A stretch of DNA of 8,637 bases from a virus (Duplodnaviria > Heunggongvirae > Uroviricota > Caudoviricetes): positions 1-8,637 of the IMG/VR virus record IMGVR_UViG_2713896901_000007. One strand, 5' to 3'. Under the pieces are notes generated by a model. It saw nothing but the letters and a program-made list of their open reading frames with translations. It did no database searches and was not told where the DNA came from. Shown here one piece after another: positions 1-8,637 of this stretch. The position numbers and the translations under genes are program-made. Position 1 is the stretch's first letter, and each line of letters begins with the position of its first letter.

Positions 1-320
1 TGATTAAAGTTAACAGTTTCTGTATCCGGTTCAGGGTCGACCGGAACAAAGGAAGCCGACTCCTCATTCCAGCGGTTTTCCTGCATATATTCGGAATCCC
101 AGGAATTGAGAGCAGGGCGGGCCATGCCGGGTTTATCCTTGCAGACAAGAAATTTATAAGCACAGTCCTGAGCGTCCGGGTATTGTTCCAGAAATAACCA
201 GCTAAATTTGGCTATTGCCCGGCGTTCGTCGCCTGCTTCAATGGCTGTGGCCACAGGTTTAGCGCCTTCTGCTGTTGCCTGTTCGTCCGGAATGGCGGCG
301 CAAATAAAGACTTTACTCAT
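1..320 (-). CDS. hypothetical early-left phage protein, partial (3' end beyond window start; at least 106 codons)
   Basis: Reverse-strand ATG at 320..318 preceded by GAGGT about 8 nt upstream. My manual translation is open for 106 codons to position 3 with no stop (MSKVFICAAIPDEQATAEGAKPV...TETVNFN). Absent from the ORF track, presumably because no stop lies in the window. Family not recognised. Confidence 0.55.
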   Translation of the reverse strand, partial: MSKVFICAAIPDEQATAEGAKPVATAIEAGDERRAIAKFSWLFLEQYPDAQDCAYKFLVCKDKPGMARPALNSWDSEYMQENRWNEESASFVPVDPEPDTETVNFN

Positions 321-412
321 TTTGTTTTACCTCATTACAGATTTAAGGGTGAACAAATCCCTGCCATTGCTGACATATAAAAATAAAACCGGATATTTAT
401 TATGGGGCTGTT

Positions 413-604
413 TTAAAGGCCTGCCGGGATTTCGTTATTGTTCATGCGAATAACTTTGTCGACAGGATAACAGGTCCCGGGAATTTTTTGCTCAGCCGCG
501 GCAGTCATGCATTCTTCCATTGAGTCATGTATGTCAATAACAAGATCAATCGGTTCATCAGAAACAAAAAAAACAGTCAGAACGAGTATAAATGCCGTAT
601 TCAT
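413..604 (-). CDS. small hypothetical protein (63 aa) with hydrophobic N-terminus, early-left operon
   Basis: ATG at 604..602 overlaps the TGA stop of the upstream ORF (ATGA coupling). Product MNTAFILVLTVFFVSDEP... begins with a 14-residue hydrophobic stretch. It is an internal start within track ORF 413..658. Function unknown. Confidence 0.45.
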   Translation of the reverse strand: MNTAFILVLTVFFVSDEPIDLVIDIHDSMEECMTAAAEQKIPGTCYPVDKVIRMNNNEIPAGL

Positions 605-789
605 TGCCTGCATCCTGTTTGCATCAGACGTAAACGGGCCAGCATCGAAACAATGCATATTTTATTTAGCAGTTCCTGTTCGTGTTTTCTTTTATTAATG
701 GCATCTTCAGTAAATATCTGATTGCTGATAGTGACACCAATTTCAAAACAACCTTCAGACGTATTAACGTTTGGTAATAACGTTTCCAT
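601..789 (-). CDS. small hypothetical protein (62 aa), early-left operon, at the position where lambdoid phages carry kil-type genes
   Basis: ATG at 789..787 with GAGGA 7 nt upstream. The track's longer form (601..894) starts at GTG with no Shine-Dalgarno. The stop overlaps the next ORF's start. The kil analogy is positional only. Confidence 0.45.
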   Translation of the reverse strand: METLLPNVNTSEGCFEIGVTISNQIFTEDAINKRKHEQELLNKICIVSMLARLRLMQTGCRQ

Positions 790-1017
790 TATCGCGTCCT
801 CAACAATGAATTTTGTGATGCGGTGCCTGGTGCCTCCAGGTGACGTTAACCAGTTAATAATTAACGTCGGATACAGAGAATCCACCCATAACACTGTTTT
901 TAGCTTTAACTGTTCCGCGTGCGCTTAGCCGCATTCACCACATCACAAAATTCACTTTAAAAAGGGCGGCAGAGCAGTCACGGAGTAAAACTGATACCGC
1001 CAAACGCCACCAGAAAA

Positions 1018-1407
1018 TTGATAACAGAGGGCGTTGTAGCGGGGTTGTCACTTAAGCGTATGGTCAACCTGATAACCCGGTGTCCTCAACGGGGAAGGAA
1101 TAACCCCGCCATACTTACCGCCGTGCCATTTCGCGGAGTGCCACAACCGGAAGCGCACGGTCGAATTAAATTTAACGACACCGTACAGAGAGACCAATTT
1201 CGCCGTGCGCTTTCGCGTTATGCCCTGGCTTTTCAGGGATATATCCTTTCAGTAAACTGTCAGTACCGGATTCTTATCCGTGTCCGGCGCACGACCACAC
1301 GTGACAGCGTGTTGGTCTCCATTTTTAACCCAGAACCTCAATGGAGGATAAAATGCCAAACAAAAAAAGAAATCCGCTTATTGAAAAACAGATTGAATGC
1401 CTGGTAA
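1018..1407 (+). CDS. questionable ORF, Arg-rich basic product (129 aa from TTG, 115 aa from ATG 1060)
   Basis: Only ORF of 60 codons or more on either strand across about 930..1340, in a locally GC-richer stretch. No convincing Shine-Dalgarno at either start, and the composition is unusual (many Arg). May be a decayed gene or non-coding. Confidence 0.2.
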   Translation: MITEGVVAGLSLKRMVNLITRCPQRGRNNPAILTAVPFRGVPQPEAHGRIKFNDTVQRDQFRRALSRYALAFQGYILSVNCQYRILIRVRRTTTRDSVLVSIFNPEPQWRIKCQTKKEIRLLKNRLNAW

Positions 1408-1562
1408 ATCAACTCAGGCAATCAGGGTTATTAAAAACTCATTCAGAGTTGAGGCTCACAGAATCAGCATTCGACGATAAATTAAATAATGTCCTTTATA
1501 ATGGCATTATTGATTTTAATCGTTCTGTTGGTCGCCGCGGCCCTGCTGGTGTTTCCTTATAA
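1353..1562 (+). CDS. hypothetical small protein (69 aa)
   Basis: ATG 1353 with GGAGGA immediately upstream (spacer 4-5 nt). Its stop (1560..1562) directly abuts the stop of the convergent 216-aa gene (1563..1565). The last 13 residues look off-frame, while the +1 frame encodes a transmembrane-like peptide (see findings). Confidence 0.35.
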   Translation: MPNKKRNPLIEKQIECLVNQLRQSGLLKTHSELRLTESAFDDKLNNVLYNGIIDFNRSVGRRGPAGVSL

Positions 1563-2201
1563 TTACCAGTCAATCCAGAGCGGACCGTGTTCAGCGTAAA
1601 TATAACTGTACACATCCAGATTATATTTGTGGTCTGTTAAGAACAGGCCGCAAATACATGCCGAAGCTTCCAGGGCAGCGGCTCTGTTACTGAATAACCA
1701 TGTAGCAACATTCCAGCGTTTTTCTGCATCCCAGTCTTTCTCAAGGCCTGATACCATGAAGAAACCGTTAGTGTTGCCATCAAATAATTCTGTTTCCAGA
1801 TTTTTAAGCAATGCCTGATGGACTCTTGCCAGGTATTCCGCCGGAATTTCGCCACGAATTCTGATGAGATTGTCATAAACAAACATGTTCCCCGCATATG
1901 GCGATTTTTCTTTCTTGTTTTTTAAACCAGTATCATGAGCAAACTGATCAATTTCTTCTTCCGTTGGTTTCGTATTGATGTTTTGCGCTGTCGTTTCTGC
2001 AATTTTATTTGCCACACTCTCTGAGTCGTGTTTATTTACAGACGCACAGAAATACAATCCGGTAAACGCATCGCGCACATTACGAGCCATATTATCAGTG
2101 TCTTTTTTCGTTACCGATTCCAATGCAAGTTCGTTCAGACGATGACGAAGTGTGTGTACTGCAATCTCCTGGATTGAAGTAGGTAAATCTTTAAATTCCA
2201 T
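1563..2201 (-). CDS. uncharacterised protein (212 aa from ATG 2201; 216 aa if started at 2213), second cistron downstream of pL
   Basis: Long clean ORF. The ATG at 2201 has GAGG 6 nt upstream; the alternative ATG at 2213 overlaps the upstream gene's stop by 1 nt (TGATG). I see no Walker, HTH or other recognisable motif by eye. Confidence 0.8.
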   Translation of the reverse strand: MEFKDLPTSIQEIAVHTLRHRLNELALESVTKKDTDNMARNVRDAFTGLYFCASVNKHDSESVANKIAETTAQNINTKPTEEEIDQFAHDTGLKNKKEKSPYAGNMFVYDNLIRIRGEIPAEYLARVHQALLKNLETELFDGNTNGFFMVSGLEKDWDAEKRWNVATWLFSNRAAALEASACICGLFLTDHKYNLDVYSYIYAEHGPLWIDW

Positions 2202-2212
2202 CGTCAACCTCA

Positions 2213-2365
2213 TCAGTCAGAGTTTCTTGCTAACCAGCGATGCGCGCCAGCTTCGGTTTTAAACGTTTTACTTTTGGTATACGTCATCGCGGTGAATGTG
2301 CCGTCCTGGTTGGGAAACACGCCGTACACCAGAGATTCGTTGTTGCCAAGATCGATAGTATCCAT
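2213..2365 (-). CDS. small protein (50 aa), probably YdaF/YdaG-like Rac early-left protein
   Basis: ATG at 2365..2363 with TGAGG 5 nt upstream (MDTIDLGNNESLVYGVFPNQDG...). The track's 76-aa form starts at 2443 with no clear Shine-Dalgarno. Family assignment is from memory of Rac gene order and is unverified. Confidence 0.55.
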   Translation of the reverse strand: MDTIDLGNNESLVYGVFPNQDGTFTAMTYTKSKTFKTEAGAHRWLARNSD

Positions 2366-2542
2366 GCTGACCTCATTTCCCCTTAACGCCGGGGTAGCGG
2401 AACAAAAACCTGCTGCATAGTTAAAGTTGAACCCTGCCGTCATGTTCTTACGCCTCGGGCTGGCTACTTAACCCCTGACCACTGCCTGGTAACTCGAAGT
2501 ATTGCCCTGCGTGCTGTGGGGCGGGGTGGGTGGCATGCTGGA

Positions 2543-2571
2543 ACTATAGGAAATGCCTAATTGATTGTCAA
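2543..2571 (-). promoter_or_regulatory. pL-like sigma70 promoter (TTGACA-17 nt-TATAGT) reading leftward
   Basis: Minus-strand -35 TTGACA at 2571..2566 and -10 TATAGT at 2548..2543 with a 17-nt spacer. The surrounding 40 nt nearly duplicate the pR module, including TTAGGC in the spacer. Confidence 0.6.
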
Positions 2572-2584
2572 TAGGCTTTGCCTA
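2572..2584. promoter_or_regulatory. OL-like operator, inverted repeat TAGGC-N3-GCCTA abutting the pL -35
   Basis: Perfect 5-bp arms, TAGGCTTTGCCTA. The same half-site recurs at 2555..2560 and in the racR-ydaS intergenic region. Confidence 0.5.
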
Positions 2585-2681
2585 ATATTCTGGGCGTAAC
2601 CTAATAGGTGATGCGAATGAAAAAAGTGATGGGAGGGATTAAATAACGGAATCCAGGAGTTTTCCGTCAGACCATATAAGT

Positions 2682-3158
2682 TTAAGTTCCAGTTTTTGTG
2701 ATGCTCTGGCTTTTCCGTTCAGATTCTAGAACTTTCAGATACTTACCAACTTTCATTTCCATCGCTGCTATGTAGGCGCGAACATCGTGGTCAACCCAGT
2801 CTGGTTCTGTAGCATTTCCTGATAACAGGAAAGCTACAATCGCTCTTATTTCATCAGAGGCTGCCTGATAAAGGTTGTTTATGTCTAAAAGTTCACTTTT
2901 TGTATCTGAGTTGGTGGGGGTTGGTATGGGGTATTCGTTAAGCCCCCAATGCTCTGGACCAACAACATCAGAAAAGAAACGCCATAATTCTGGAAGTTTA
3001 TCTTTACTTATGGAGCCTTTCTTAATCCAGTCATAGATTGATGGTGGTTGGACTTTGAAGTGGCGAGCGACCTCCGCCTTTGATTTGACGGATCCCGATG
3101 CGATTTTTTTGTTAATGGCCTGCTCTATTGCTCGGCCTAAGTCTTTACCACTAAGCAT
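2682..3158 (-). CDS. racR: prophage repressor, cI-like XRE-family HTH (158 aa), RacR-like
   Basis: N-terminal Cro/C1-type HTH (SKAEVARHFKVQPPSIYDWIKKGSIS). Divergent from a 98-aa Cro-like and 141-aa gene pair, matching Rac racR-ydaS-ydaT order and sizes. AGGAG lies about 10 nt upstream of the ATG at 3158. Confidence 0.85.
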   Translation of the reverse strand: MLSGKDLGRAIEQAINKKIASGSVKSKAEVARHFKVQPPSIYDWIKKGSISKDKLPELWRFFSDVVGPEHWGLNEYPIPTPTNSDTKSELLDINNLYQAASDEIRAIVAFLLSGNATEPDWVDHDVRAYIAAMEMKVGKYLKVLESERKSQSITKTGT

Positions 3159-3212
3159 TGCTTAATATTCTCCTATGCTCATTGTATTAGGCAATCCCTA
3201 TCCTCACTGCAT

Positions 3213-3252
3213 TAGGCATAGCCTATTGACATTGGTGTTAGGCGTCGCCTAA
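3213..3252. promoter_or_regulatory. OR-like operators: TAGGC-ata-GCCTA (3213..3225) and TTAGGCG-t-CGCCTAA (3238..3252)
   Basis: Two inverted repeats sharing the TAGGC/GCCTA half-site. One abuts the pR -35 and the other lies across the spacer and -10. A possible leftward pRM -10 (TACAAT, plus coordinates 3186..3181) with a poor -35 sits nearby. Confidence 0.55.
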
Positions 3253-3255
3253 TAT
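3226..3255 (+). promoter_or_regulatory. pR-like sigma70 promoter (TTGACA-18 nt-TAATAT) for the ydaS operon
   Basis: -35 at 3226..3231 and -10 at 3250..3255, about 27 nt upstream of the ydaS ATG. GGAG Shine-Dalgarno at 3270..3273. Confidence 0.6.
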
Positions 3256-3281
3256 CTCTGTGTGTTTTTGGAGTTCATTCG

Positions 3282-3578
3282 ATGAAAAAAGAGAACTATT
3301 CATTCAAGCGAGCTTGTGCTGTTGTCGGTGGGCAATCAGCAATGGCTAGGCTTTTAGGTGTATCACCTCCAAGCGTAAATCAATGGATCAAAGGGGTACG
3401 TCAATTGCCTGCAGAGAGATGTCCAGCAATTGAACGTGCAACAAGAGGTGACGTTCTGTGCGAAGAACTTCGTCCTGATATTGACTGGTCATATTTACGA
3501 CGTTCGGCATGTTATTCGCAGAATATGTCAGTGAAGCAACTAAATGACAGTAACAAATCCTCATTTGATCATACCTGA
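3282..3578 (+). CDS. ydaS: Cro-like HTH regulator (98 aa), YdaS family
   Basis: HTH segment SAMARLLGVSPPSVNQWIKG. It is the first gene divergent from the repressor, and its length matches Rac YdaS. Confidence 0.8.
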   Translation: MKKENYSFKRACAVVGGQSAMARLLGVSPPSVNQWIKGVRQLPAERCPAIERATRGDVLCEELRPDIDWSYLRRSACYSQNMSVKQLNDSNKSSFDHT

Positions 3579-3600
3579 AACATCAAGAGGAAAATGATTC

Positions 3601-4026
3601 ATGAAAATCAAGCATGAACACATCCGCATAGCGATGAATGCCTGGGCGCGTCCTGATGGCGAAAAGGTTCCGGCAGCTGAAATAACCCGGGCTTATTTTG
3701 AGTTGGGTATGACGTTTCCTGAACTGTACGACAACAGCCATCCTGAAGCCCTGGCTCGCAATACCCAGAAAATTTTCCGCTGGGTAGAGAAAGACACTCC
3801 TGATGCGGTTGAAAAAATTCAGGCGTTGTTACCTGCGATCGAAAAGGCAATGCCGCCTCTGCTGGTGGCCCGAATGCGCAGTCACAGTTCAGCCTATTTT
3901 CGGGAGCTGCTGGAGACGCGGGAGCGGCTGGTGAGGGATGCAGATGATTTTATTGCGGTGGCAATTGCTGGTTTCAACCAGATTAATCGCGGTGGCCCGG
4001 CAGGAAATGCCGTGGTGATGCACTAA
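3601..4026 (+). CDS. ydaT: YdaT-family protein (141 aa), at the cII position
   Basis: Immediately follows ydaS (22-nt gap, AAGAGG upstream). Size and position match Rac YdaT. Assigned by synteny and memory, not by search. Confidence 0.7.
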   Translation: MKIKHEHIRIAMNAWARPDGEKVPAAEITRAYFELGMTFPELYDNSHPEALARNTQKIFRWVEKDTPDAVEKIQALLPAIEKAMPPLLVARMRSHSSAYFRELLETRERLVRDADDFIAVAIAGFNQINRGGPAGNAVVMH

Positions 4027-4049
4027 AAGCACGGTGTTCGGGGTTTTTT

Positions 4050-5012
4050 ATGAGCAGCAAGCTTCATGGTCTTGTCTGGGAAGGGTGCGCCTTCACCGGC
4101 ATGATCTTATCCAGGGTGGCAGTGATGGCTCGTCTTGCAGACTACAGCAATGATGAAGGTGTGTCATGGCCTGCAGTAGAGACCATTCGTCGTCAGATTG
4201 GGGCAAAGAGTGAATCAACGGTTAAAGCGGCGATAGCGGAACTGGAAAAGAGCGGCTGGCTGACAAAGGAAGAGCGTAAGGTTGGCGGACGTAACGTAAG
4301 CAATATCTACCGGCTTAATGTGGAAAAACTCGAAGCTGCAGCAGCGGCGGCGCGAGAGGCATATAAACCGAAAAGAAAAATTAGCCCGGCAAAAAATGAC
4401 CCGTTAACGGTTGACCCGTCAAATATTGACCCCTCAACGGTTGACCCGTCAAATTTTGATGGCTCAACCGTTGATAAAAAACGGTCGGTTAGGGGGGCGA
4501 TGATTGACCCCGATCCGTCAGTATTAAAATCTGATCCGTCAGATAAAAGATCTTCTTGTCCGGACGCTTTGCAACCGGACCCGCAGACGGCTGAACAGGA
4601 TTTTTTAACCCGACACCCTGATGCGGTTGTGTTCAGTGCGAAAAAACGCCAGTGGGGAAGTCAGGAAGATTTGGCGTGCGCACAGTGGATCTGGGGACGA
4701 ATCGTGAGTCTTTACGAGCAGGCGGCCAGCGATGATGGCGAGATCACGCGACCGAAAGAACCAAACTGGACCGCGTGGGCCAATGACGTGCGCACAATGC
4801 GGATGCTGGATGGCAGAACTCACAGACAAATTTGCGAAATGTTTGGGCGGGTACAGCGGGATCCATTCTGGGTAAAAAACATCATGAGCCCGTCAAAGCT
4901 CCGCGAAAAATGGGACGAACTGGTCATCCGCCTGGGGCGTTCACCTGTACAGCGTTGTGTGAATCATATTTCTGAACCGGACACCGAAATTCCGCCGGGG
5001 TTCAGGGGGTAA
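4050..5012 (+). CDS. replication initiator, lambda O-like (320 aa), with ori iterons inside its linker
   Basis: N-terminal winged-helix initiator-like segment. Central DPSxx peptide repeats are encoded by 15-bp tandem DNA repeats. The gene directly precedes a DnaC-like gene. Corresponds positionally to Rac ydaU. Confidence 0.75.
   Translation: MSSKLHGLVWEGCAFTGMILSRVAVMARLADYSNDEGVSWPAVETIRRQIGAKSESTVKAAIAELEKSGWLTKEERKVGGRNVSNIYRLNVEKLEAAAAAAREAYKPKRKISPAKNDPLTVDPSNIDPSTVDPSNFDGSTVDKKRSVRGAMIDPDPSVLKSDPSDKRSSCPDALQPDPQTAEQDFLTRHPDAVVFSAKKRQWGSQEDLACAQWIWGRIVSLYEQAASDDGEITRPKEPNWTAWANDVRTMRMLDGRTHRQICEMFGRVQRDPFWVKNIMSPSKLREKWDELVIRLGRSPVQRCVNHISEPDTEIPPGFRG
4396..4470. repeat. five tandem ~15-bp iterons (consensus TTGACCCGTCAANNN), putative replication origin
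   Basis: Direct repeats at about 4396, 4411, 4426, 4441 and 4456, each with internal TTGAC..GTCAA dyad symmetry. Followed by duplicated GATCCGTCAG motifs at 4511..4545. Confidence 0.6.
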
Positions 5013-5018
5013 CGAACC

Positions 5019-5195
5019 ATGAAAAATATTGCGACAGGCGGCGTTCTGGAACGTATCCGCAGACTGACCCCGCCACATGTAACCGCCCCATTCAGAACGG
5101 TAGCGGAGTGGCGCGAGTGGCAACTTGCTGAAGGCCAGAAGCGTAGCGAGGAGATCAACCGCCTGAATCGCCAGTTGCGGGTGGAAAAATTATGA
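5019..5195 (+). CDS. DnaC/IstB-like helicase loader, N-terminal segment (58 aa), separated from the ATPase domain by a frame break
   Basis: ATG 5019 with AGGGGG Shine-Dalgarno, 6 nt after the O-like stop. Ends at TGA 5193..5195 just after an A5 run (5185..5189). Not in the ORF track, presumably below its length cut-off. My own translation. Confidence 0.5.
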   Translation: MKNIATGGVLERIRRLTPPHVTAPFRTVAEWREWQLAEGQKRSEEINRLNRQLRVEKL

Positions 5196-5764
5196 ATCGC
5201 TCAGGCATCCAGCCGTTGCACCGTAAATGCTCGTTTGCGAATTACCATGTACAGAACGATGGCCAGCGATACGCGTTAAGTCAGGCGAAATCCATCGCTG
5301 ATGAACTGATGACCGGATGCACAAATTTCGCGTTCAGCGGAAAACCTGGTACTGGAAAAAACCATCTGGCGGCGGCTATCGGGAATCGCCTGCTGAAAGA
5401 CGGCCAGACAGTGATAGTGGTTACTGTGGCTGATGTTATGAGTGCCCTGCACGCCAGCTATGACGACGGGCAGTCAGGTGAAAAATTTTTGCGGGAATTG
5501 TGCGAAGTGGATCTGCTGGTTCTTGATGAAATTGGCATTCAGCGTGAGACGAAAAACGAGCAGGTGGTACTGCATCAGATTGTTGATCGCCGGACAGCAT
5601 CGATGCGCAGTATGGGGATGCTGACAAACCTGAACTATGAGGCCATGAAAACGTTGCTCGGTGAGAGGGTTATGGATCGCATGACCATGAACGGCGGGCG
5701 ATGGGTTAATTTTAACTGGGAAAGCTGGCGACCGAATGTCGTCCAGCCAGGAATCACGAAGTGA
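5192..5764 (+). CDS. DnaC-like AAA+ helicase loader, ATPase domain (190 aa)
   Basis: Walker [19 protein letters not shown] and Walker [10 protein letters not shown], which I recall as close to E. coli DnaC. The ATG overlaps the upstream stop (ATGA). Corresponds positionally to Rac ydaV. Confidence 0.8.
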
Positions 5765-5786
5765 TTTTTACCGGGAGGAAATTTTA

Positions 5787-6548
5787 ATGGAGACTGTTTT
5801 TGACGCACTGAAAGCGATGGGAAAGGCCACGTCCATAGAACTTGCTGCGCGACTTGATGTCAGTCGTGAAGAAGTGCTTAACGAACTATGGGAACTGAAA
5901 AAGGCTGGTTTTGTTGATAAAAGCGCGTACACCTGGCGTGTGGCTGATAACAACGTTCAGCAGGAACAACCAGCGCAGGCAGAACTGCCGGAAGAAACCA
6001 CCACAGCAACAGTAGCGAAAATCTCAGAGTGCGATTTAACCGCGACGATTGAACAACGCGGACCACAAACGGCGGATGAACTGGCTACGTTGTTCGGTAC
6101 CACATCACGCAAAGTAGCGTCAACGCTGGCAATGGCAATCAGCAAAGGGCGTCTGATTCGTGTAAATCAGAACGGTAAATTTCGTTACTGCATGCCGGAC
6201 GATAATTTACCAGCTGAGCCGAAAGCCGCATTGGTAACGGGAAATGATGGTAAAGCCTTTCCTCAGCCAGCAGGTGTTGCGTTACCAGCACAGGAAGCTG
6301 TAACACAGGAAGAAATTAAAACAGAAACTGTGGCGGACATTGTGCAGTCGCTGCCATCGTTCACCGAAACGCGGGCGGATGACCTGATTTTACCATCTCT
6401 GCACCTGGCAAACCGCGAACTGCGTCGGGCGAAAAATCATGTCCAGAAGTGGGAGCGTGTCTGCGCCGCACTGCGGGAGCTGAATAAACACCGGGATATT
6501 GTCCGACAGATTGTCGATTCCTCCAGTCGCGTTGTGTTGGAAAAGTGA
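5787..6548 (+). CDS. hypothetical protein with two predicted winged-helix domains and a C-terminal helical tail (253 aa)
   Basis: ATG 5787 with GGGAGGA 7 nt upstream. The track start at 5736 lacks a Shine-Dalgarno and overlaps the loader gene. The two wH-like segments are residues about 1-50 and about 110-150. Possibly ydaW-like. Confidence 0.7.
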
Positions 6549-6555
6549 GGCGCTT

Positions 6556-6966
6556 ATGAGAAACGTTTTTACACCTGAATATCGGGAGCAACTGAAGGCG
6601 CGTATTGTGGAACTGGTGCGCAGAGATGGGCGGAAAACACGTAAGCAACTGGAGGATGAAACCGGAGCAACGAGACACCTGATAGAAGTTCTGGCGAAAG
6701 AGCTGGTAGTTAGTGGCACGCTATATGGTTCAGGCCATGGAATATTTCCTTCAGAACAGGCTCGTAAGGACTGGATAAAAGCCTGCAAAAAAATGTCGAG
6801 AGCGGCAGTGAAAAAGAAGAGCGACTCTGGCCTGATTTATTCATTGCCAGATGGCGAAATACGTCGTTACAACAGGCGTCATAATATAATTTGTAATGAG
6901 AGCCGTAACAGTGAAGTGATGCAGCGAGTTTTGATATTTTACACAGGAGTAATGATGGTTCAGTGA
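6556..6966 (+). CDS. hypothetical protein (136 aa), C-terminus encoded by AT-rich DNA and possibly truncated or fused at a junction
   Basis: ATG 6556 with GTGAGG 5 nt upstream, 7 nt after the previous stop. Composition changes sharply at about 6840 inside the ORF. Confidence 0.55.
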   Translation: MRNVFTPEYREQLKARIVELVRRDGRKTRKQLEDETGATRHLIEVLAKELVVSGTLYGSGHGIFPSEQARKDWIKACKKMSRAAVKKKSDSGLIYSLPDGEIRRYNRRHNIICNESRNSEVMQRVLIFYTGVMMVQ

Positions 6967-7321
6967 AAACAATATGAAATCTTTATCTTCTGGTCTTTCA
7001 ACAGATGGGAAAAGTGTAGATATATGAAAATTGTATAGCAATAATTCGCAGCATGGATGCTGTTTGTATGTTGATAAAGTGCTCCCAGTATGCGAGTGTA
7101 AGAGTTGAACCAGCTCCAACTAAGAAACTGGGGGGGATTATTCAGAATGTAGCTAAGTGAATGTTGTTATGAGTATCTGAAAAATTTTTAATGGGTCTAA
7201 GAACACAGCAATGCACAAATGAGGAGTTATCTTTTATTGTGCTTATTAATATGCTCAATGACCCATTGAGATTGATGTTAGTTATGTTAGCCAGAGTGAT
7301 ATAGTGATTATATCTCTGTTG

Positions 7322-8095
7322 TTATATGCTGAAATGAATAATACTATTCCAGAGTGCAGCAGCGAAAGTCTCCTGATGATTGAGTCCTGGGAATTGTACG
7401 ATAGAAAAATTACTGTATTTTTCTGTTAAAATATTTCTCAAAACAGATTCTGCTTTAATGGCTTCAGGATATAAAGATGCGGAGTAATCAAGGCTAAGAT
7501 CTCCGTTAAGTAAGCATATGCTTTTAGTATGCTTTGATTCTGGCATATCATTTTTTATGATCTTGATGATTCTTTCATCCTGCCATAGAAGTGATGGTGC
7601 TGAGATATAATAATAGCTAAAACATGAATTGTGTTTTAAACAATCAAGAACAAAAATGGCACCTAGTGAGTGTCCCCATATACCGAGTTTGGAAGAGGTC
7701 GGAACAACGGTGCTGACCCAGGGCATGATCTGAGTTAGCAATAACTCTCGGAAAGTCTGACTTCCTCCACCAGTGAAGTAGATCCATGCTGGTTTGGAGT
7801 TATCAATAATAGCATTTTCACCACTAGGAGTGTAATCGTAAGCACGGCGGTGAATGTTAAGGTTATCCCAGGATTCATAACTAAGTGTAACTAACACTGG
7901 TGGATTGGGTAGTGCATCAATAACAGGCAGAATATCAGAAATGTAATTGTTGGCACTATTCCCATCAAGTATATAAAGAGTTGCATTATTTTTTTCAATG
8001 TTTTTTGGAGTAAAAATACATATTTTATATTTGGTGTCATGGTTAATTGAGTTAAATATGCGTGTTTGACAATGAATGTCCATATGTTTAGTCAT
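7322..8095 (-). CDS. alpha/beta-hydrolase, esterase-type (257 aa), in a low-GC segment
   Basis: GHSLGA nucleophile elbow (GxSxG), upstream LDGN motif and a C-terminal GLNH segment, resembling the Fes/IroE putative-esterase fold as I remember it. ATG 8095 with GGGGAGAA upstream. No N-terminal signal peptide. Confidence 0.75.
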   Translation of the reverse strand: MTKHMDIHCQTRIFNSINHDTKYKICIFTPKNIEKNNATLYILDGNSANNYISDILPVIDALPNPPVLVTLSYESWDNLNIHRRAYDYTPSGENAIIDNSKPAWIYFTGGGSQTFRELLLTQIMPWVSTVVPTSSKLGIWGHSLGAIFVLDCLKHNSCFSYYYISAPSLLWQDERIIKIIKNDMPESKHTKSICLLNGDLSLDYSASLYPEAIKAESVLRNILTEKYSNFSIVQFPGLNHQETFAAALWNSIIHFSI

Positions 8096-8460
8096 GCGTT
8101 CTCCCCATGAGCATTAAAGGATGCTTAAGATATGCTATGTCACTGATGAAAAATTTGTTGTGTGTGTTTAGATATTTTATCTACCTCCATTATGATTTAA
8201 GACTGATATATGTTATCAGCAAAGGTACATCGTTATTATTTTACCTGTCAATACATTTGATATTGATTATCGTTTACATCGCTTGCTTAGGAAATTGAAG
8301 GCAGATAACTATCATGTCAATGAACTAACCCACAGTCTAACGTACTTCTTTCCCCAATCACCAACAACCAAATTCCTGTTATCATCACCGGGATTTTGGC
8401 GCAACTTCATGGTGCAGAGGTAAATAGCATCAAGCAAAATCTCTTTTTCCGTTGTTGTCC

Positions 8461-8637
8461 TTATGGGACGTCTGTCTTTCTGACCGATTTCATATTGGCG
8501 AGGTAATGGGAAGTTAAGTAGAATGGCTGCGGGTGCTTGAGGCTATCTGTCTCAGGCATGAACACCAAAGGCAGATAGAGAAAAGCCCCAGTTAACATTA
8601 CGCGTCCTGCAAGACGCTTAACATTAATCTGAGGCTC
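8461..8637 (-). CDS. possible 3' end of a gene entering from the right window edge (58 codons, no start in window)
   Basis: My manual translation of the minus frame is open from 8637 to a TAA at 8463..8461 (...LAGRVMLTGAFLYLPLVFMPETDSLKHPQPFYLTSHYLANMKSVRKTDVP). An open frame of this length could be chance. Confidence 0.2.
   Translation of the reverse strand, partial: EPQINVKRLAGRVMLTGAFLYLPLVFMPETDSLKHPQPFYLTSHYLANMKSVRKTDVP

Follow-up and report, generated by a model that had tools for sequence, protein, structure and literature searches.

p212 and orf69, a candidate two-gene cassette in the early operon of a Rac/Qin mosaic prophage

The window analysed here is a stretch of 8,637 nucleotides (nt) from a Caudoviricetes virus (IMG/VR record IMGVR_UViG_2713896901_000007, positions 1 to 8,637). 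It contains a gene for a 212-residue protein, referred to here as p212, which lies on the leftward early transcript behind a prophage repressor. What does this gene belong to? Is it one half of a module with the small YdfA-like gene directly upstream, as an initial annotation of the sequence proposed? Or is its partner another gene, and what might the two do? Comparison of the locus with related prophages of Escherichia and Salmonella points to orf69, a 69-residue open reading frame (ORF) that faces p212 head-on. Judged by its sequence and distribution, the pair makes up a mobile accessory cassette of two genes, at about 1294-2219, of the kind carried in the early operons of temperate phages. 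In the window the cassette is placed between ydfA and an RNA leader predicted to yield DicF, in a dicBF-type operon under RacR-type immunity. The features on which the argument depends are these:

1294-2219, no strand assigned: cassette relative to K-12 Qin, in the place of ydfB-ydfC, seen as a blastn gap between Qin-aligned blocks and by its lower GC content
1563-2201, minus strand: p212, a 212-residue protein with a helical N-domain and a predicted ferredoxin/ACT-like C-domain (PHROG 2151, homologues, AlphaFold models, and the ratio of non-synonymous to synonymous substitution rates, dN/dS)
1353-1562, plus strand: orf69, a convergent gene for a basic 69-residue protein, the proposed partner of the p212 C-domain (PHROG 4274, dN/dS, linkage, Salmonella homologues)
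1624-1656, plus strand: a hairpin of 15 bp in the sense strand of orf69, within p212 codons about 182-192 (-19.5 kcal/mol, z-score -2.9)
2213-2365, minus strand: a 50-residue DUF1391 protein of the YdfA/YdaF family, the first cistron (Pfam PF07151, 98.9 bits)

The 212-residue gene and its convergent neighbour

Both minus-strand ORFs of the initial annotation are present, at 2213-2443 (76 residues) and 1563-2213 (216 residues). The p212 start is ATG 2201 (MEFKDLP) in the family alignment, PHROG 2151 and RefSeq alike, giving 212 and not 216 residues. GAGG is found 6 nt upstream of this ATG, which itself follows the ydfA stop by 11 nt; close spacing and the proposed translational coupling of the two genes are therefore plausible. 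In the first cistron the 50-residue form, near-identical to K-12 YdfA, begins at the internal ATG 2365 with GAGG 5 nt before it, and the PF07151 match (gathering cut-off 27.3 bits) spans residues 28-75 of the 76-residue frame. The 76-residue reading is not supported: its extension crosses the Rac/Qin joint described below, and RefSeq uses the short form in a near-identical locus.

PHROG 2151 matches p212 over its full length at 1e-144, more than 100 homologue clusters were found, and the C-terminal half has a dN/dS of 0.16-0.25. By these measures the 212-residue gene is real; its exact protein sequence is on record from Escherichia albertii. The AlphaFold model has a helical N-domain, approximately residues 1-90, and a conserved ferredoxin/ACT-like C-domain, approximately residues 98-212. 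Single-sequence and profile searches with p212 gave no match in Pfam, NCBIfam, PADLOC or PDB sequences, a C-domain profile matched nothing among PDB sequences, and the PHROGs that match p212 or orf69 are families of unknown function only. A literature search returned no paper on the 212-residue gene or on its 'Ybl81' label. The absence of a recognisable motif, remarked on in the initial annotation, thus stands after the profile and structure comparisons that it had called for: no characterised family was matched, and the C-domain model has generic fold matches only. The best of these are regulatory or oligomerisation domains, ACT and ArgR-C. The modelled C-domain has the look of a domain for binding or regulation and not of an enzyme.

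The N-domain is fast-evolving (dN/dS 0.29-0.81). Between near-identical alleles, the changes in the N-domain (1931-2201, codons 1-90) are almost all non-synonymous, with dN up to 0.029 and dS of 0 in most pairs (maximum 0.018), and those in the C-domain of the same pairs are almost all synonymous. The counts are small, and hint at diversifying selection or recombination in the N-domain. Two suggestions about its relatives were discarded: homology to YdfB, YdfC or YdaG was rejected on reading the sequences, and matches to two giant proteins seem spurious, one of them having a Pfam F-actin-binding match at the same place.

The stop codon of orf69 abuts that of p212. With GGAGG 5 nt before its ATG, a match to PHROG 4274, RefSeq annotation in a near-identical locus and a dN/dS of 0.19-0.27 between divergent alleles, orf69 can be taken as a genuine gene. 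It has no match in Pfam, NCBIfam or PADLOC, and its profile has none among PDB sequences. The two proteins are oppositely charged in both genera, with isoelectric points (pI) of 5.3 for p212 and 9.7 for orf69, and 4.6 and 9.4 for the Salmonella relatives described below. The hairpin begins 62 nt past the orf69 stop, and two of its pairs are G.U, which the other strand would have as A.C mismatches. All E. coli alleles and the Salmonella loci have a hairpin at this place, despite the different amino acids encoded there in the two genera, and in two Salmonella loci it was scanned as terminator-like and is followed by TTTCATATTT. These are single-sequence folds, the cross-genus RNAalifold having been defeated by out-of-register stems; the hairpin probably marks the 3' end of the orf69 transcript or stabilises it.

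A run of seven A residues lies just after the orf69 start (1359-1368, codons 3-6), and eight IMG/VR loci have a 1-nt frameshifting deletion there. Two of the eight also have single-base deletions in p212, one at a position where the window's allele has an A; for this reason sequencing error seems likelier than phase variation.

Linkage and exchange of domains in Escherichia and Salmonella

Of 79 IMG/VR loci that carry p212, 76 are informative in having sequence downstream. At 72 of these orf69 is beside p212 at a fixed spacing, three others have an unrelated convergent gene and the last has a truncated p212. Upstream, the repressor is RacR, a DicA-like protein of one of at least four grades (at 93%, 54-65% or 27-34% identity), or none detected with the queries used. 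RacR-type repressors are uncommon in this company, being found at 4 of the 79 viral-contig loci, and among 25 listed genomes only the four top-ranked extend into racR. The small genes upstream of p212 may be ydfA, ydfA-ydfB, ydfA-ydfB-ydfC, or ydfB or ydfC without ydfA; ydfB and/or ydfC intervene between ydfA and p212 in eight loci and ydfA is absent from three. The division inhibitor downstream is dicB or kilR. Since the linkage is kept under these varying repressors and upstream genes, orf69 and not ydfA is best regarded as the partner: on the loci compared, ydfA is a neighbour of p212 and orf69 is the linked gene. The small YdaF-like gene and p212 do not form the module first proposed, as ydfA occurs without p212 in thousands of genomes, some p212 loci are without ydfA, and in others ydfB and/or ydfC separate the two.

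Among 5,426 complete E. coli genomes, p212 was found in 591 (counted at a coverage of at least 80%) and orf69 in 597. The carriers include O157:H7, O26, O111 and O145 strains; p212 is not a strain-specific insertion, the possibility raised in the initial annotation. The suggestion that the gene is inserted relative to K-12 Rac (ydaG-ydaF, with a convergent sieB) was borne out, it is an insertion relative to K-12 Qin (ydfA-ydfB-ydfC) as well, and p212 is absent from some Rac-like prophages, K-12 Rac among them. With these distributions p212 counts as one of the common accessory genes of prophages, in a slot already known to vary. Neither family extends beyond Escherichia and Salmonella, and in two scans both were absent from all 185,579 GTDB species-representative genomes. 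Deposited phage genomes contained relatives of the N-domain only and no full-length p212.

The only other proteins with the C-domain are from Salmonella enterica. They are either of 217-220 residues, with a different N-domain, or of 286-294 residues, with an inserted XRE helix-turn-helix, and they share only the C-domain with p212, at 27-38% identity. Their genes are in P2/186-like prophages, in the order integrase, repressor and then, divergently, cox and the C-domain gene. Phage 186 carries cII in the position directly after cox. Each Salmonella C-domain gene is faced by an ORF of 64-69 residues that overlaps its 3' end and is 52-53% identical to orf69, with a C-terminal GRRGPAG motif common to both. 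Reciprocal look-up from the orf69 homologues gave the same convergent arrangement, and in the contexts examined orf69 homologues were never met apart from a C-domain gene. In one Salmonella lineage the annotator left uncalled a C-domain gene that has no N-domain; this gene abuts orf69, with a separate N-domain gene beyond. The lineage that joins the XRE helix-turn-helix to the C-domain matches phage repressor and CII-like PHROGs. The C-domain and orf69 persist together through changes of repressor, of upstream small genes, of downstream inhibitor and even of the p212 N-domain, and the conserved core kept across the two genera is, on these comparisons, the p212 C-domain with orf69.

The N-domain has other associations. 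In a profile search of 1.84 billion representative proteins there was one full-length cluster, and two proteins shared only residues 100-193. Approximately 45 representative proteins, many of 50-200 residues, share residues 1-55, some to about residue 90, and then diverge, and PHROGs 1363, 9419, 6937 and 33007 match the p212 N-terminus only. The N-domain is also present in Stx2 phages and PPompW prophages, joined to other C-termini. A constant N-terminus with alternative C-termini, as in polymorphic effector-immunity systems, is therefore found here. Five different C-termini occur with five unrelated convergent ORFs, and orf69 tracks the C-domain across genera. An N-domain member in a Stx2 phage has no annotated convergent ORF downstream, and no Pfam domain, be it for secretion, delivery or toxicity, was found in any N-domain member tested. 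From its sequence organisation the N-domain locus has the look of a polymorphic effector/partner set.

Four loci illustrate such arrangements, and in each the convergent ORF has its own PHROG of unknown function. An N-domain variant is followed by a convergent ORF of 80 residues, zinc-ribbon-like, at locus L091 (717-959), of 63 residues at L093 (3584-3775) and of 77 residues at L005 (4386-4619). At L080 (5799-6557) a p212 variant without orf69 is followed by a convergent ORF of about 170 residues with coiled-coil and CxxC features.

The surrounding early operon

The cassette interrupts a region assembled from two kinds of prophage, the parts of which are as follows:

413-658, minus strand: DUF1482 (YdfD-like) ORF (Pfam PF07358, 74.9 bits)
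601-789, minus strand: DicB cell-division inhibitor (Pfam PF05358, 130 bits, residues 36-97 of the ORF at 601-894)
964-1015, minus strand: DicF small RNA (Rfam RF00039, 76.4 bits against a gathering score of 48)
1016-1330, minus strand: conserved structured RNA leader of about 315 nt on the transcript from the leftward promoter, pL (alignment, RNAalifold)
2571 to 2543, minus strand: pL-like sigma-70 promoter, TTGACA-17-TATAGT, with 11 of 12 consensus matches (consensus scan)
2547-2559, 2572-2584 and 2591-2603, no strand assigned: three operator-like palindromes, TAGGCnnnGCCTA, the presumed left operator, overlapping pL (pattern search)
2682-3158, minus strand: RacR repressor (DNA 95% identical to the racR region of K-12 Rac, and a RefSeq RacR label in a near-identical locus)

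By blastn, DNA identity to the immunity region of K-12 Rac (racR, ydaS, ydaT) is 95% over window positions 2378-3624, identity to the dicBF arm of K-12 Qin is 87% over positions 24-1293, and identity to K-12 Qin ydfA is 93% over positions 2220-2403. The Rac/Qin junction is at about 2378-2403. Between the two Qin blocks, positions 1294-2219 gave no blastn alignment to K-12 Qin and have no counterpart in K-12 Rac either; GC content is about 0.40-0.43 in this cassette against about 0.49 in the flanks. These alignments identify the window as a mosaic prophage early region with a Qin-type dicBF left arm and a Rac-type immunity region. The latter is seen in racR, the divergent ydaS-ydaT (Pfam matches) and operator palindromes on both sides of racR, and the former in ydfA being followed on its own strand by DicF and DicB. 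The true start of the DUF1482 ORF is probably internal, overlapping the dicB stop.

Comparison with K-12 sets the two sources apart. The window resembles the Qin dicBF operon (dicBp-ydfA-ydfB-ydfC-dicF-dicB-ydfD-ydfE) in its repressed promoter, ydfA, structured leader, DicF, DicB and YdfD-like gene, but has RacR in place of DicA, and p212 and orf69 in place of ydfB-ydfC. No similarity to ydfB or ydfC, which in K-12 are between ydfA and dicF, was found in the window, unlike some related loci that carry one or both alongside p212. With the Rac left arm (racR, ydaG-ydaF facing sieB, kilS/kilR) it shares the immunity region, 95% identical over 2378-3624, an early DUF1391 cistron and an opposite-orientation gene facing the early small genes; it differs in being without ydaG and sieB and in having DicF/DicB downstream instead of KilS/KilR. 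A tblastn search with K-12 SieB matched nothing in the 79 loci, so that only the convergent position is analogous.

The promoter and its operators are real at the level of sequence. The TAGGCnnnGCCTA pattern has eight matches in the window against 2.2 expected, a number reached in none of 200 shuffles, and three mirror sites at 3188-3251 are beside the rightward promoter. The initial annotation had placed the genes behind a repressor-controlled promoter, and with pL and the overlapping operators in place this was upheld; the K-12 data agree. Lowering RacR in K-12 Rac raises ydaF and ydaG about 40-fold (PMC6765115), and it is because of this result that RacR would be expected to control the window's leftward operon. 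Repressor control and the polycistronic reading are both drawn from K-12 work (PMC6765115; bioRxiv 10.1101/2023.04.14.536235), and by that analogy repressor control can be considered soundly argued. The leftward operon continues past the cassette into DicF, DicB and the YdfD-like gene (601-1015, minus strand). Neither this continuation nor orf69 had been noticed in the initial annotation. As an operon with a RacR-type promoter reads into dicF-dicB, RacR rather than DicA should control the cell-division inhibitors in this hybrid. The 5' leader from pL to ydfA is about 170 nt long and starts very C-rich on the transcribed strand (CCACCCACCCCGCCCC, window 2444-2542, minus strand), which could be a Rho-loading or antitermination signal.

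The RNA leader upstream of DicF aligns with the ydfC-dicF spacer of K-12 Qin, with PPompW and with the Salmonella P2/186-like prophages; further copies are at L003 (6065-6382), L087 (6815-7150) and L088 (7065-7385). RNAalifold gives 69 pairs, seven with compensatory changes, and the G.U pairs favour the minus strand. Rfam found no DicF in the Salmonella loci, where the leader is followed by another hairpin, one that has a U-run and shows a compensatory change between two loci. The leader has the appearance of a conserved platform for processing, with small-RNA cargo that can be exchanged.

Two features elsewhere in the window concern other genes. A putative esterase of 257 residues (7322-8095, minus strand; Pfam PF00756, GHSLGA motif) is located in AT-rich DNA (GC 0.33-0.39) beyond the replication and DUF1627/DUF977 genes and resembles a separate cargo gene. 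At 8531-8637 (plus strand) Rfam RF01794, the sok antitoxin RNA, matches at 67.9 bits; it is part of a hok/sok-type locus and is cut by the window end.

Possible roles of the pair

What might p212 and orf69 do? The reading that we prefer, tentatively and at less than even confidence, is that they are an antagonistic protein pair whose expression would be made reciprocal by convergent transcription. p212 would be made only once the repressor is lifted, on the same polycistronic transcript as DicF and DicB, and orf69 would be a separate transcription unit running against the pL transcript, with its own Shine-Dalgarno sequence and 3' hairpin. The acidic p212 and the small basic orf69 would act as effector and neutraliser, loosely like a toxin-antitoxin or effector-immunity pair, and the active partner could be either. 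Convergent transcription and the RNA duplex would then result in mutual exclusion, with orf69 made in the repressed prophage and p212 after derepression. We prefer this reading because of the fixed linkage, the conservation of the pair at a distance, the purifying selection and the opposite charges, and also because orf69 has its own GGAGG and 3' hairpin and other C-termini come with convergent ORFs of their own.

Likeness to type II toxin-antitoxin and polymorphic effector-immunity pairs extends to the tight linkage, opposite charge, constant N-termini with alternative C-termini and adjacent small genes. It does not extend to layout, the window's genes being convergent with abutting stops rather than co-directional and co-transcribed, nor to family, as no known toxin or antitoxin family was matched in Pfam, NCBIfam, PADLOC or PDB sequences and there was no specific fold match.

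Several points weigh against antagonism. Canonical toxin-antitoxin pairs are co-directional, and p212 and orf69 are not. Pfam, NCBIfam, PADLOC and the fold search detected no known toxin, immunity, defence or anti-defence domain in either protein. Some homologue clusters are a 211-residue form ending 'FKG' that has an unrelated convergent gene and not orf69; because such loci exist, including three of the 76, orf69 is not indispensable to the carriage of p212. No convincing sigma-70 promoter was found for orf69, the sole consensus match overlapping its start codon. A conserved orf69 'leader' and a hairpin hiding its ribosome-binding site were considered and then reinterpreted, since the conserved DNA is also in K-12, where orf69 is absent; the conservation is that of the minus-strand DicF precursor. 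The direct binding of p212 to orf69 that the pair model would involve is hypothetical. Lastly, the linkage could reflect the shared history of one inserted segment rather than a shared function.

That last point leads to a doubtful but serious alternative, in which two independent accessory genes travel together. In that case p212 would serve host takeover or anti-defence early in the lytic phase, as other accessory genes of pL operons do, and orf69 would be a lysogen-expressed 'moron' in the sieB slot that acts on something else, for example a superinfecting phage. The slot does hold unrelated convergent genes elsewhere (sieB in Rac, a 77-residue ORF in PPompW, the ORF of about 170 residues at L080), a few loci have p212 without orf69, and the GC content of the cassette is below that of its flanks, as is often so in morons. 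However, in highly mosaic phages the adjacency has been kept down to about 30% identity for the C-domain and about 50% for orf69, and has survived three changes less than 300 bp from the junction: replacement of the N-domain, insertion of a domain and loss of the N-domain. Independent passengers would also have to account for orf69 never being seen apart from a C-domain gene in the contexts examined, and neither gene has similarity to SieB or to any PADLOC model.

A regulatory module is an unlikely explanation. Here the C-domain would serve oligomerisation or ligand sensing and orf69 would be a small nucleic-acid-binding protein or anti-activator, and head-on transcription would tune lysis-lysogeny or the share of early transcripts that reaches DicF and DicB. 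It would suit the ACT and ArgR-C fold matches, the basic orf69, the XRE helix-turn-helix lineage with its repressor and CII-like PHROG matches, and the position of the pair, which in every context has the DicF processing leader directly downstream. As in the head of a P2/186-type early operon (after cox/apl), the Salmonella gene is the first after cox and is under the prophage repressor; with 186 cII, fil and dhr, however, the analogy is of position only, and no named family matched the Salmonella C-domain genes. Yet p212 has no DNA-binding domain, and no operator-like repeats were noticed around orf69. An establishment model of the CII/pE type fits the Salmonella layout but was rejected as a general one, since in the E. 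coli layout of the window orf69 transcription is antisense to racR.

The reading with which the locus was first annotated, the YdfA-like 50-residue protein and p212 as a toxic, abortive-infection or anti-defence module, is very improbable: the genes are close together on one transcript, with ydfA directly upstream in most loci, but ydfA is far more widespread than p212, is separated from it or missing at the loci counted above and is replaced upstream by cox in Salmonella, and induction of the K-12 operon without dicF and dicB showed YdfA, YdfB and YdfC not to be growth-inhibitory (PMC5069750). The sole match in PADLOC-DB 2.0 is a weak one on the YdfA-like protein (AbiEi, E = 0.0016, 32 residues).

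What is new here is a conserved convergent gene pair with a modular N- and C-domain architecture, and a pairing corrected from ydfA to orf69. The cassette is carried by about 11% of complete E. coli genomes, including major Shiga-toxin-producing lineages, and would share its transcript with DicF and DicB, which control cell division, metabolism and the function of phage receptors. As unrelated passengers, the two genes would be an ordinary pair of orphan prophage genes. If they are an antagonistic pair tied to the prophage switch, they would represent a new way to control toxic early genes or to fight related phages. A broader and unlikely view is that enterobacterial temperate phages carry a hitherto unrecognised polymorphic effector family at the head of the early operon, with a shared N-terminal domain, swappable C-termini and cognate head-on small proteins, wired to the switch so that the neutraliser would come from the resident prophage and the effector from a phage that is induced or incoming. 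Such a family, if true, would give competition between phages, or the self-control of induction, a new logic.

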